A stretch of DNA of 16,065 bases. Source: a virus. The translations under genes were made by a program, and so were the position numbers. Numbering within the stretch: the stretch's first letter is position 1; every line of letters starts with the position of its first letter. The notes beneath the pieces were generated by a model that had not been told where the DNA came from, searched no databases, and saw only the letters and a program-made list of their open reading frames with translations. The DNA lies in the IMG/VR virus record IMGVR_UViG_3300009514_000697. The stretch is one strand, 5' to 3'. Shown here piece by piece: positions 3,329 through 16,035 of the stretch.

Positions 3329-3394
3329 AATATTATCTCCTTATTAAGTTTTTAAGTAACATTCTAATATATGATATGAAAGTAAAGTTAAACA

Positions 3395-3538
3395 TTAGTA
3401 ACCCGCAAACCCTATGTAATTGTCTTCGAGCACAAAATAAGTGGTCATGGTAACTGTACATGTCTGGTTTTGTTCATTGTAATTCGGTTTTAGAATGGAG
3501 CTATCTTTTAATTGTTTTTCGATTTCGGATTTATCCAT
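3395..3538 (-). CDS. possible 47-aa micro-ORF (MDKSEIEKQLKDSSILKPNYNEQNQTCTVTMTTYFVLEDNYIGFAGY)
   Basis: Open from ATG 3538 to TAA 3395. It has no SD and lies inside what may be a leader, so coding is doubtful. Confidence 0.2.
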   Translation of the reverse strand: MDKSEIEKQLKDSSILKPNYNEQNQTCTVTMTTYFVLEDNYIGFAGY

Positions 3539-3540
3539 AC

Positions 3541-3569
3541 TTATTATGTTTCATAAATTTTAGTGTCAA
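3541..3569 (-). promoter_or_regulatory. sigma70-like promoter candidate reading leftward. On the minus strand the -35 is TTGACA (3569..3564), the spacer is 17 bp and the -10 is TAATAA (3546..3541).
   Basis: Perfect -35 hexamer but a weak -10. It lies in the 460-bp region without long ORFs between the micro-gene run and the 320-aa gene. In AT-rich DNA such matches are common by chance. Confidence 0.25.
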
Positions 3570-3795
3570 AAACACAATTTACAAAAAATTTAGCTTTTTC
3601 TAATGCTTTTGTCCAGTAATAATACATCTAAGCGGAAATATAAGCATTAAAACCTAATAAATGGGTTTTTTTATAAATCTACCACCATTATTTCATGCAA
3701 GTTCCATCGTATCCAGACCAATAAATATCTTATAGTCTGGCAGTAAGTTTTTATTTGTTTCTGTTTCAATGTACATTTTTATTTATCATAAGGTA

Positions 3796-3927
3796 TTATT
3801 GAGGTTTATCTTTAGAACACCAGATACACCATTCTTCAGGTTGCCAAGGAGGTTTGATGTATTGGTGTTTACGAAAAACCATGCATTTTATTTTACCCCA
3901 CACATCATCTAAGTAAATCTTTTTCAT
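3796..3927 (-). CDS. micro-protein, 43 aa (MKKIYLDDVWGKIKCMVFRKHQYIKPPWQPEEWCIWCSKDKPQ)
   Basis: Hand translation. AAGGA lies 3-4 nt upstream of the ATG. It has a CxxC pair near the C-terminus and is last in a chain of four coupled small genes. Confidence 0.35.
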   Translation of the reverse strand: MKKIYLDDVWGKIKCMVFRKHQYIKPPWQPEEWCIWCSKDKPQ

Positions 3928-3940
3928 AATTCCTTTTCAA

Positions 3941-5532: not shown

Positions 5533-5693
5533 TTTACTTACACCTTACGGTATTCAAATACATGGACAAGAATTGCTCCACCTTGTAATTGACAGGAGCC
5601 TAAATGTTTTCGGTTTAATGAAAAAAATTCTTCAACCGTATTGGTTTCTGGCATCGGGATGGGGTATTTCCAGATAGTTTTAAACATACTTAG

Positions 5694-5736
5694 AACATAT
5701 ATTCTAAGCCAAAAGAAAATCCTAATTTTTGGACTT
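5694..5736 (-). promoter_or_regulatory. bipartite conserved intergenic element. Minus-strand AAGTCCAAAA, then 21 nt, then AGAATATATGTT. A second AAGTCCAAA copy sits at 5747-5757.
   Basis: The same two exact motifs recur with 22-nt spacing at 11778-11821. In plus-strand form they are TTTTGGACTT and AACATATATTCT. Both sites lie just upstream, in the transcription direction, of a gene start. This makes it a candidate phage promoter or operator. Confidence 0.35.
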
Positions 5737-5758
5737 TTTTATAAATTTGGACTTTTCT

Positions 5759-5790
5759 ATAAAAAAAGCACCCTACTTGCGTAATGTGCT
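5759..5790 (-). terminator. candidate rho-independent terminator ~110 nt downstream of the MVP stop
   Basis: Minus strand AGCAC-AT-TAC-GCAA-GTA-GG-GTGCT followed by T8. This is a 5+3 bp interrupted stem with a GCAA tetraloop. Confidence 0.4.
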
Positions 5791-5897
5791 TTTCGCTATT
5801 ATGGAAAAACATGATGGGATTATGAGTCTTGATTTGTGGTTTTGGCAAGAATCCTAGTTGTTAGAATATCTCATTATACCCCACCATGCTTATATTT

Positions 5898-14096: not shown

Positions 14097-14354
14097 TTAG
14101 TCATTTTTAAGGGGGTTTCTAGGTGAGTCTGGTAAAATGGGTAGGGGTGGACTAGAAACCCGTTGAAACGGGCTGTATTCGTTTCTCAGGGGTTCATATG
14201 AAGCTCTATTATCTTCTAGAGTCTCGCATTTTAATTGTATGTTTCTATATCTGTGTTCTGTATCCGACCACAAATATCCAAGCAAAACCCCTATCCAGAA
14301 CAGGGCTATTGTGGCTACAACTTTAAGTTGTTTCCATTGGATATGGCTATCCAC
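14097..14354 (-). CDS. possible membrane-anchored protein, 85 aa, GTG start
   Basis: ORF track. One TM helix (VVATIALFWIGVLLGYLW) and a Pro-rich tail. The GTG start overlaps the end of the upstream zinc-ribbon micro-gene by 8 nt. No SD. Confidence 0.35.
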   Translation of the reverse strand: MDSHIQWKQLKVVATIALFWIGVLLGYLWSDTEHRYRNIQLKCETLEDNRASYEPLRNEYSPFQRVSSPPLPILPDSPRNPLKND

Positions 14355-14520
14355 CAGTACCCAAGTCTGAACCTAAATCATCAAAGTAGTCTTTCAGGGC
14401 AATTCCTGTTTCTACTCTACATTGAGTAGAACAGTAGAAAGGGAATATTGAAGAATCGGATTCGATTAGCGGTTGGTGACAGTAAATACAGGTCTTGGTC
14501 TTTGTAGTAATTTTTTCCAT
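14347..14520 (-). CDS. zinc-ribbon micro-protein, 57 aa (MEKITTKTKTCIYCHQPLIESDSSIFPFYCSTQCRVETGIALKDYFDDLGSDLGTGG)
   Basis: Hand translation. CxxC and CxxxC pairs are 15 residues apart. GAGGT lies 4 nt upstream of ATG 14520. It sits 24 nt downstream of the metallopeptidase gene. It is below the ORF cutoff. Confidence 0.45.
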   Translation of the reverse strand: MEKITTKTKTCIYCHQPLIESDSSIFPFYCSTQCRVETGIALKDYFDDLGSDLGTGG

Positions 14521-14544
14521 TGTTACCTCACTCTTTTCAATTAT

Positions 14545-15288
14545 TTATACAACGGAATCTGATTCTGCTTTTTGGGCTTTTCTGGCTACCGCTTTAACAT
14601 AGTAATTAACTTTTTTCTGGTATTCCTTAGATTTCTTTTGGGCATTGAGCATAACCTTATCCCACTTTGCCAGTAGCTTTCTATTCTTTTCCAGTTTATA
14701 TTCGACAGTGTTTTTGAGTTTTCTTTGTTCTTTTTTCTTAGTTTTCTTCTCTGCTTCTTTTTTTCTCTTTTGGATTTTGGCTTGAAATATCTTTCTAGAA
14801 ACCATATTCTCTTTTCTCATTTCCTTGACAATTTTTTTCCAGACCGTATCTTGGACTTCCCTGAATTTGATAATCACCTTGTAAGAATGAACGTTTGCTA
14901 CAAACTCTTTTCTTGATCTGGTACTGGTTCGGATATTAGGGTCAACAGTGTGATATAGTTCATGGGCAATCAGATGAAGAATAACTTCGGTTCGATTGTT
15001 GATAATAAAAGAGGGGGAATACTTGAATCGGGAATCTGCAATATCGTATGGGAATTTATAAGAACTGAAAGGTAAAATATTTTTACTGATATTCAGGTTT
15101 ACCCATCTTTCCCACCCATCATAGTTTGCTGTACCAGACCAACTCCTATCCTTGTTCTTTACAATGATGGGGAGTTTCTTGAAAGCTCCGATTTCTGTAT
15201 GTTGAATAGCAAAGTCAATTAAGACTTTCAGATATGCTGTTGAGTATTTAGAAGTATTTTTTATCGTGTATGTTTTATTTTTCTTCAA
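14545..15288 (-). CDS. HExxH minimal zinc metallopeptidase (ImmA/IrrE- or SprT-like zincin) with a ~110-aa Lys-rich C-terminal tail. TTG start.
   Basis: ILHLIAHELYHTV is a HExxH motif in a hydrophobic context typical of minimal zincins. The C-terminal third is K/E/R-rich and predicted helical. The start is TTG at 15288, and AAGGAG lies exactly 7 nt upstream of it. Confidence 0.65.
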   Translation of the reverse strand: MKKNKTYTIKNTSKYSTAYLKVLIDFAIQHTEIGAFKKLPIIVKNKDRSWSGTANYDGWERWVNLNISKNILPFSSYKFPYDIADSRFKYSPSFIINNRTEVILHLIAHELYHTVDPNIRTSTRSRKEFVANVHSYKVIIKFREVQDTVWKKIVKEMRKENMVSRKIFQAKIQKRKKEAEKKTKKKEQRKLKNTVEYKLEKNRKLLAKWDKVMLNAQKKSKEYQKKVNYYVKAVARKAQKAESDSVV

Positions 15289-15689: not shown

Positions 15690-15965
15690 TTAAATTTTAA
15701 ATGGGTTCACTTTTTTTACATCTTCACCATTGCGGGTGGCTAGTACGATATCCCGAACCATTTCTCGATCAGTACTATCCCCTACGAATTCCAAATTAGG
15801 TCTAATTTCTTTTCGGAGACTAATTGCCTTTTTCATTTCTGATTCAGTCAAACCATCAATGGGATACAGGCCACCTTTTCCATAAAAGGTAAAGAAATAT
15901 TCTTTGAAATATTCTTTGAAATTCGGGCTACTTGGTTCCATGTCTGCTTCGTTATATTTTTTCAT
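15690..15965 (-). CDS. hypothetical protein, 91 aa from ATG 15965. The ORF-track 102-aa version starts at ATG 15998.
   Basis: The internal ATG at 15965 has CAAGGAGAAAGAAAA upstream, giving an 8-nt spacer. The ATG at 15998 would need a leaderless or SD-less start. Confidence 0.5.
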   Translation of the reverse strand: MKKYNEADMEPSSPNFKEYFKEYFFTFYGKGGLYPIDGLTESEMKKAISLRKEIRPNLEFVGDSTDREMVRDIVLATRNGEDVKKVNPFKI

Positions 15966-16006
15966 TTTTCTTTCTCCTTGTTCAAGTTCCTTAACCATCT
16001 ACCTTT

Positions 16007-16035
16007 AATATAGCATTTTAAATCTCATAAAACAA
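16007..16035 (-). promoter_or_regulatory. extended -10 promoter candidate. On the minus strand the -35 is TTGTTT (16035..16030), the spacer is 17 bp and the -10 is TGcTATATT (16015..16007).
   Basis: The TG-extended -10 plus a TTG -35 is the best sigma70 match in the window. The predicted start site is ~16000, just upstream of the first gene in the rightmost operon. Confidence 0.35.

Follow-up and report, generated by a model that had tools for sequence, protein, structure and literature searches.

The DNA analyzed here, IMG/VR virus record IMGVR_UViG_3300009514_000697, is a stretch of 16,065 nt (referred to as the window) with all of its long open reading frames (ORFs) on the minus strand. 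We set out to gain insight into a bipartite element that occurs at two places between its genes and that the original prediction, made from the letters of the window, had described as two exact motifs of 10 and 12 nt forming a candidate phage-specific promoter. Both copies are present and, like all genes, read on the minus strand (Table 1), but the spacing between the two halves is not identical as had been claimed: it differs by 1 nt, with 21 nt at site 1 and 22 nt at site 2. Site 1 is directly preceded by a hairpin with a T-run, which, as proposed, terminates the unit with the gene for a homologue of the major vault protein (MVP), here full-length and inside a phage contig. Site 2 lies within the 50-nt gap between the gene for a CCA-adding enzyme and a 164-aa ORF. 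The CCA assignment is borne out by the PolyA_pol match, whereas the designation of the downstream ORF as a peptidase found no support, as this ORF had no match in Pfam or PHROG. No terminator was found before site 2; hence, although both sites had been placed at operon starts, only site 1 clearly is one.

An extra half-site had been reported at 5747-5757, next to site 1. It exists, but at 5754..5745, and is not followed by a TAnnTT hexamer 27-28 nt downstream. No duplicate of this kind was seen at any other copy in all contigs aligned. The 49-aa ORF after site 1 gave a weak match to DUF7352 (28.5 bits) that covers only the C-terminal third of this family, and the ORF may be the remainder of a truncated gene or encode a short protein without a leader. 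AAGGAG-type Shine-Dalgarno sites precede many of the other ORFs in the window.

Table 1. Positions of the bipartite element, of neighbouring genes and of other promoter-like elements in the window.
Feature	Position	Strand	Remarks
Site 1, box AAGTCCAAAA	5736..5727	minus	exact match; AAAAA directly before
Site 1, spacer (21 nt)	5726..5706	minus	sequence not conserved
Site 1, 12-mer AGAATATATGTT	5705..5694	minus	exact match
Site 1, downstream block AGAATA-TATGTT-CTAA	5705..5690	minus	-10-like hexamer TATGTT at 5699..5694
Site 2, box AAGTCCAAAA	11821..11812	minus	abutted by stop codon TAA of the CCA-adding enzyme gene
Site 2, spacer (22 nt)	11811..11790	minus	
Site 2, 12-mer AGAATATATGTT	11789..11778	minus	exact match
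Site 2, downstream block AGAATA-TATGTT-ATAA	11789..11774	minus	hexamer at 11783..11778
Extra box-like half-site AAGTCCAAAT	5754..5745	minus	imperfect; 18 nt upstream of site 1 box
Terminator-like hairpin and T-run	~5794..5761	minus	centroid -13.5 kcal/mol, z -2.79
Major vault protein homologue gene (867 aa)	8501..5898	minus	Pfam MVP_shoulder
CCA-adding enzyme gene	13082..11820	minus	PolyA_pol
First ORF after site 1 (49 aa)	5687..5538	minus	ATG 6 nt past TATGTT; no Shine-Dalgarno site
First ORF after site 2 (164 aa)	11769..11275	minus	ATG 8 nt past TATGTT; no Shine-Dalgarno site
Sigma70-type element TTGTTT-N14-TGC-TATATT-AAAGGTAGATGG	16035..15995	minus	head of gene array
TATAAATA (T4 late-promoter consensus)	14549..14542	minus	just upstream of ORF 14347-14520
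TATAAATA (T4 late-promoter consensus)	10176..10169	minus	just upstream of ORF 9666-10163

Each half-motif by itself was not unusual in the window when mismatches were allowed. With up to six mismatches in total, the remaining matches carried five or six, mostly represented the same two sites read in a shifted register, and were about as numerous as expected from shuffled sequence. A weight matrix was then built from 20 copies of other contigs, without the window copies. It scored the two window sites at 43.5 and 41.5 bits compared to a best score of 12.3 bits in 30 shuffles, in agreement with the earlier view that a chance recurrence is unlikely, and it detected no third site in the window. 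The spacers of the two copies are unrelated, which argues against a simple duplication.

When the full window was compared with 50,697 phage records, no near match emerged. Its MVP homologue was located once, on a JGI contig of 16,065 bp, so that the window represents this contig in full. Relatives carrying the MVP homologue fall into three groups, namely contigs L003, L004 and L142 (71%, 66% and 53% identical, respectively), contigs L143-L145 (47-49% identity) and the uncultured huge phage genomes LR756500 and LR756501 (462 kb and 735 kb, 38-44% identity). The MVP homologue is the sole protein that the window has in common with these relatives, and gene content near the motif varies among relatives. 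A further contig, IMGVR_UViG_3300009514_000024, was found by an exact-pattern scan of viral contigs; its fetched pieces merge to 35 kb. Contig L187, which stems from a sample from Ace Lake, Antarctica (IMG 3300035698), is syntenic with the 35-kb contig at 60-80% amino-acid identity, and L017 and L257 originate from the identical sample as the 35-kb contig. The G+C contents of the window and the 35-kb contig are nearly equal (34.4% and 33.4%), and the two have one small protein in common (51% identity over 51 residues, E 1e-10). The corresponding ORF at 3395-3538 (47 aa), the only one of the window with a clear homologue in this motif-rich contig, lies in a region of about 600 nt (3329-3940) in which the gene strand has no ORF of at least 60 aa.

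Among the products of the 35-kb contig are homologues of three T4 proteins, namely the sliding clamp gp45 and two clamp loader subunits, gp44 and gp62. For the clamp loader, the best matches among cultured phages were T4-like cyanophages (about 38%), the strongest being P-TIM40, and L017 encodes a baseplate wedge protein. Judged by the gp45, gp44 and gp62 homologues and the baseplate gene, the motif-bearing phages represent an uncultured T4-like lineage. L187 carries sixteen tRNA genes within 15 kb, among them one with the anticodon CTA (amber suppressor) at 12697-12770, which hints at recoding of TAG in this phage lineage.

Copies of the motif were found upstream of genes in L003, L004, L142, the 35-kb contig, L187, L017 and L257, so that the recurrence, the absence of which had been named as an argument against the original prediction, was observed. 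The 35-kb contig has 11 copies and L187 has six within 15 kb; L003 and L004 have one each, L142 has a single degenerate one, and L017 and L257 have one orthologous copy each. In L003, AAAAAAGTCCAAAAATT-N-ATAATATATGTTGTAAGT is located after the vault protein unit and is followed by AAGGAG and ATG. The L004 copy is situated upstream of the vault protein gene, where a terminator is followed by AAAAAAGTCCAAAATTT and then by TATATT at the same 27-nt distance. When a relaxed pattern was used to scan viral contigs, the scores were bimodal, with a few contigs holding many high-scoring copies and the others at background. An apparent enrichment of one spacing in the first of these relaxed scans was discarded, as it stemmed from three unrelated coding sequences that were present redundantly.

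The box word AAGTCCAA[AG][AT] occurs 25 times in about 100 kb from eight related sequences. In 23 cases it is coupled to a TAnnnT hexamer 27-28 nt downstream (22 TAnnTT, one TATAGT), and all 23 coupled copies reside on the gene strand. Of the two words without such a hexamer, one is the extra half-site next to site 1 and the other falls within coding sequence of the window. Position is as biased as strand: copies are situated upstream of genes or at gene ends, 0-45 nt ahead of start codons, many of which have an AGGAG Shine-Dalgarno site. Hairpins with T-run terminators precede site 1 and the L004 copy, and several copies immediately follow tRNA genes. Some of the latter start within 10-20 nt of tRNA 3' ends, as in L264 (13836-13937, 15811-15903) and L187 (1480-1593, 3609-3711, 14217-14314). 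The AAGTCC of the box equals the 3' half of the T-arm (TTCAAGTCC) in some of these tRNAs, which is probably a coincidence.

Alignment of 22 copies from the window and its relatives led to a redefinition of the motif as an A-rich run with AAGTCCAA(A/G)A, a distance of 27-28 nt, and TA(T/A)GTT with ATA(A/G). The first eight positions of the box, AAGTCCAA, are invariant in all 22 copies, including GTCC, and are followed by A or G and then by A; the A-rich run lies upstream of the box. After the box comes a loose AWTnG, and the spacer, with G at position 5 in 17 of 22 copies, is otherwise not conserved. The block before the hexamer conforms to A-n-A-A-n-n and reads AGAATA in the window group and in most copies of the 35-kb contig and AAAACC in L187. 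In the hexamer TA(T/A)GTT, T, A, T and T are each present in 22/22 copies and G is present in 20/22; ATA(A/G) follows, frequently continued by GTA. The second box of 12 nt as first described therefore holds up in its TATGTT part, while its AGAATA half is lineage-specific, and the functional core appears to be the hexamer plus the following ATA.

Five orthologous pairs were compared. Identity amounted to 49 of 50 positions in the box and 29 of 30 in the hexamer, as opposed to 41 of 105 in the spacer and about 50% in the flanks. Conservation of box and hexamer but not of the spacer is the pattern of a bipartite protein-binding site and not that of an RNA structure or a duplication. No stem-loop was predicted in the motif, the spacer had neither complementarity nor covariation, and an Rfam scan of the window gave no match. 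The hairpin at 5794..5761 is a separate element that is present upstream of site 1 only.

A -10 signature, TAnnnT, is present in every one of the 23 coupled copies, in the forms TATGTT, TAAGTT, TATATT, TAGTTT and TATAGT. Among the aligned copies, the positions 17 +/- 1 bp upstream, at which a -35 hexamer would be located, are not conserved, and an extended -10 element (TGn) never occurs, the bases before the hexamer being ATA, ACC, AGG and others. The sole conserved upstream element is located 27-28 bp from the hexamer, accompanied by a weak WTnG about 20 bp away. The statement that the element fits sigma70 poorly thus applies to the missing -35 hexamer but not to the second box, the core of which is a TAnnnT hexamer.

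To describe the distribution of the motif, several further collections were scanned. Among 185,579 bacterial and archaeal genomes, an exact-pattern scan gave 30 matches, none with the extended consensus and not more than one per contig; the pattern was strict, with 19 fixed bases including the lineage-specific ATA before the hexamer. The metagenome collection likewise yielded only chance-like matches that lacked the extended consensus. No copy was found in 41 kb of cyanophage P-TIM40 around the clamp and clamp-loader genes, and no clear copies were found in L143-L145 or in 40-kb samples of LR756500 and LR756501. In L143-L145, full-length genes for RNA polymerase beta' and beta precede the vault protein gene by a few kb; none of the motif-bearing contigs examined has phage RNA polymerase genes, which occur only on these motif-free contigs. 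A description of the motif was not found in the literature, and a search with the sequence string retrieved only unrelated primer matches. Hence, the motif looks phage-specific and restricted to a small group of uncultured T4-like phages.

Two other promoter classes are present in the relatives. Minus-strand operons of the 35-kb contig are preceded by a second element, TTG(ACA/AAA/TTT)-N14-TGC-TA(T/G)ATT-A(A/T)AGGTAGATGG, and the arrangement TTGnnn-N14-TGn-TAnATT is that of a canonical sigma70-type -35/extended -10 promoter. The window carries one such element at the head of its gene array, where about 40 nt (16035..15995) are nearly identical to three copies in IMGVR_UViG_3300009514_000024. 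In this class the spacer and a downstream block are conserved as well, which suggests more than plain recognition by a host sigma factor. The nearby ORF 15690-15998 probably begins at an internal ATG, 15965, that is preceded by an AAGGAG site. The third class is marked by TATAAATA, the T4 late-promoter consensus. On the gene strand it was observed 14 times in L187 (expected 2.6), nine times in L142 (expected 3.0) and 11 times in the 35-kb contig (expected 5.9); in the window, two occurrences stand against about 2.6 expected, which is no excess. In the relatives (L187, L264, L142, L017), it is found 5-10 nt ahead of nearly every tRNA gene and of baseplate genes, and each tRNA may have its own late-type promoter. 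These sites are separate from the motif; a single copy (L001 3018) includes TATAAATA by overlap only.

The genes that follow the motif encode the sliding clamp, the clamp loader, a MoxR-like ATPase with a VWA partner, a lytic transglycosylase, a deoxyribosyltransferase-like protein and many small ORFs, and a sigma operon is also among them. The baseplate module is not a target of the motif. The sigma factor, encoded in a motif-preceded operon of one of the motif-bearing phages, is a 280-aa RpoD/RpoS-like protein, and L142 encodes a sigma factor 30% identical to it. The 16-kb window itself lacks a sigma gene.

Given the copies on the gene strand of relatives, the merely chance-like matches in prokaryotes and metagenomes and the phage sigma genes in the lineage, the motif still qualifies as the phage-specific promoter candidate it was first taken for, and we consider it very probably a promoter. 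Our best reading is that it constitutes one of three promoter classes in this uncultured T4-like phage lineage. How it would work is less certain, and an activator-type, non-late promoter resembling "middle" promoters is the model we favor with some reservation. In this model, the host RNA polymerase core would carry a sigma70-family subunit that recognizes TA(T/A)GTT as its -10 element (at -12..-7). There would be no hexamer at -35..-30, and the AAGTCCAA(A/G)A box would come to lie at about -49..-40 with A-runs near -52 and -42. The box would be bound by a sequence-specific factor, most likely phage-encoded, that recruits or re-targets the polymerase and replaces the -35 contact. Transcription would start about 6-8 nt past the hexamer, inside the conserved ATA(A/G)GTA. 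At both window sites this start would fall on the ATG or up to 2 nt before it, so that the mRNAs would be leaderless or nearly so; the other copies, with AGGAG, lie 20-45 nt from the start codons, which would correspond to leaders of that length. From the genes served, we infer that this class drives non-structural functions, i.e. replication, nucleotide metabolism, small ORFs and the phage's own sigma gene.

Several points weigh against this model. The promoter function is deduced from sequence alone, and the strict genome-scan pattern could have missed degenerate host promoters of this type. No homologues of MotA, AsiA or Mor were found among about 45 proteins scanned with Pfam and PHROG, which come from partial genomes. 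An RpoD/RpoS-like phage sigma factor would more naturally suit the canonical sigma70-type class, and its region 4 could not reach a box located 27 bp from the -10 element. The position of the sigma gene downstream of a motif copy fits mere precedence as well as it fits autoregulation. Finally, the box and the two A-runs would occupy the positions of the subsites of an UP element, which is contacted by the alpha subunit, and recognition by host polymerase alone therefore remains a rival.

According to this rival, the motif would be an early promoter for unmodified host RNA polymerase, with TA(T/A)GTT as -10 element and the A-run/GTCC/A-run at about -54..-36 as an UP-type element replacing the -35 hexamer. 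UP subsites lie near -52 and -42, and with the hexamer at -12..-7 the A-runs around GTCC are indeed centred there, about 10 bp apart. The many small ORFs of unassigned function after the motif are typical of early regions, and a sigma gene downstream of a copy would be expected if host polymerase transcribes the sigma gene first. However, binding by the alpha subunit depends mainly on A-tracts and DNA shape and should not fix four positions containing G and C, whereas the invariance of GTCC in 22/22 copies argues for base-specific recognition. In addition, the canonical -35/extended -10 class of the same phages is far better suited to host polymerase, and no consensus-like copies were found among the 185,579 prokaryotic genomes, albeit with a strict pattern. 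We regard this explanation as unlikely, though it is the strongest of the alternatives.

A second rival holds that the RpoD-like phage sigma factor itself reads both box and hexamer, in which case the motif would be the promoter of a phage sigma regulon whose two recognition elements lie unusually far apart. A sigma factor with regions 2 and 4 is encoded on a motif-bearing contig, the 30% identical one occurs in L142, which has a degenerate copy, and the TAnnnT hexamer is compatible with recognition by region 2. The distance of 27-28 bp between box and hexamer is, to our knowledge, about 10 bp beyond any known -35/-10 spacing of the sigma70 family. Furthermore, the protein is nearest to RpoD/RpoS models, these genomes also have a canonical -35/-10 class, and the 16-kb window has no sigma gene. 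Because the spacing is too long and the sigma70-type class better suits an RpoD-like sigma factor, direct reading by the phage sigma factor is improbable.

Even less probable is that the motif is not a promoter at all but a protein-binding or recombination signal at cassette borders, such as a repressor operator, a boundary repeat of gene shuffling or an RNA processing site. Gene content does differ among relatives, the motif is found at cassette borders and after tRNA genes, and short blocks common to some spacers, e.g. CTAGTAACC and TAGCTTATA, hint at recombinational spread. On the other hand, strict gene-strand orientation, a fixed distance to TAnnnT and proximity to start codons are needed by a promoter but not by a recombination site, and the lack of predicted structure, Rfam family and spacer covariation also argues against this explanation. 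Boundary repeats of T4-type phages are, moreover, themselves promoters.

The remaining candidates were rejected. A promoter of the Bacteroidota type (TTTG at -33, TAnnTTTG at -7) does not apply, as the gene strand lacks TTTG and the genes use AGGAG Shine-Dalgarno sites. The Bacillus sigmaH type (AGGAWWT-N12-GAAT) matches two copies only and is absent from L187, the AACA of an AR9 late promoter (AACA-N6-TA) would have to be read on the wrong strand, and the TATG at the start of phiKZ late promoters is not kept in the TAAGTT copies. The latter also disrupt a conceivable conserved two-codon mini-ORF, ATG-TTN-TAA. In a T4-type late promoter, TATAAATA would be located at about -13..-6 without an upstream element, where the motif has TA(T/A)GTT instead.

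Returning to the activator-type model, its closest counterparts appear to be the MotA-dependent middle promoters of T4 by function and the Mor/C-dependent promoters of phage Mu by geometry. As in T4 middle promoters, a box specific to the phage stands upstream in place of the missing -35 hexamer and the TAnnnT signature persists, all in a T4-like phage that also has sigma70-type and TATAAATA late-type promoters. Replication genes are served in both cases: T4 gene 45 has a middle promoter, and a motif copy precedes the gp45-like sliding-clamp gene here. Unlike the T4 MotA box, (a/t)(a/t)(a/t)TGCTT(t/c)A, which is located about 12-13 bp from the -10 element and centred near -30, the box described here is AAGTCCAAAA and is 27-28 bp from the -10 element; the MotA box core TGCTT forms no consensus in the motif spacers of the aligned copies. 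An RpoD-like sigma factor is encoded here, and T4 lacks one. As box sequence and distance differ and the partial genomes show no MotA or AsiA, the motif is not a member of the T4 class. With the Mu middle and late promoters it shares a recognizable -10 element and a poor or absent -35 element. The activator site for Mor/C in Mu is centred in the -40s (about -43.5), just upstream of the -35 position, and the centre of the box here would lie at about -44.5. The Mu sites are dyad-symmetric and the box is not, the phage type is unrelated, and no Mor/C homologue was found among the proteins scanned from the partial genomes.

UP elements of strong bacterial and phage early promoters resemble the motif in having A-rich, phased tracts at about -38 to -59, upstream of the core promoter, and differ from it in that here an invariant GTCC core stands between the A-runs and the core promoter has no -35 hexamer. 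The promoter/stem-loop repeats that bound hyperplastic regions in T4-type phages carry sigma70-type early promoters; site 1, where a terminator hairpin leads directly into a promoter-like repeat on the edge of a variable gene cassette, is reminiscent of them, but the class found here is non-canonical and most copies have no adjacent hairpin. Early promoters of the jumbo phages phiKZ and AR9, which encode multisubunit RNA polymerases of their own, are likewise phage-specific, with highly conserved AT-rich blocks around -10 that are detectable by bioinformatics upstream of operons, but each consists of one block of some 10 nt and has no second element at a fixed distance (PMC7598289). The classes known from jumbo phages, all different from the motif, comprise these AT-rich early blocks, TATG for phiKZ late and AACA-N6-TA for AR9 late promoters (PMC7598289).

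Further observations concern the contigs as such. At about 700-1950 on the minus strand, the window has a 12-nt tandem coding repeat, ATGAAGTCTGGT / ATGAAGTCAGGA, the 10-mers of which are the most over-represented in the data set, together with four paralogous small ORFs that each begin with MNN. A gene at merged positions 29519-29887 of the 35-kb contig, part of a phage operon, codes for a receiver domain that stands alone and is of the cyclic-phosphate-processing (cREC) type. The neighbour of this gene resembled a macro-domain ORF by eye.

The motif itself appears to be new but belongs to a well-known kind, that of promoter classes specific to phages and marked by an upstream specificity box; it would gain in interest if the factor turns out to be new. 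We tentatively raise the possibility that a deep-branching T4-like lineage without MotA/AsiA has a way of carrying out "middle" transcription that has not been described before. Here, a new phage-encoded factor, possibly acting together with the RpoD-like sigma factor of the phage, would recognize an asymmetric 10-bp box near -45 of a -35-less promoter. If this is true, some transcripts would begin at the ATG and thus be leaderless, although strong Shine-Dalgarno sites are used elsewhere in the same phage. Knowing its promoter classes is central to reading the temporal programme of any phage, and the transcription signals of uncultured large phages are almost unknown. Here, three separable classes are common to contigs with almost no detectable protein similarity. 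Such signals could be used to link genome fragments of one lineage, to sort genes by expression class without culture and to point to the regulator, and a motif as short, strong and sharply defined as this one lends itself to in vitro experiments with the phage sigma factor.

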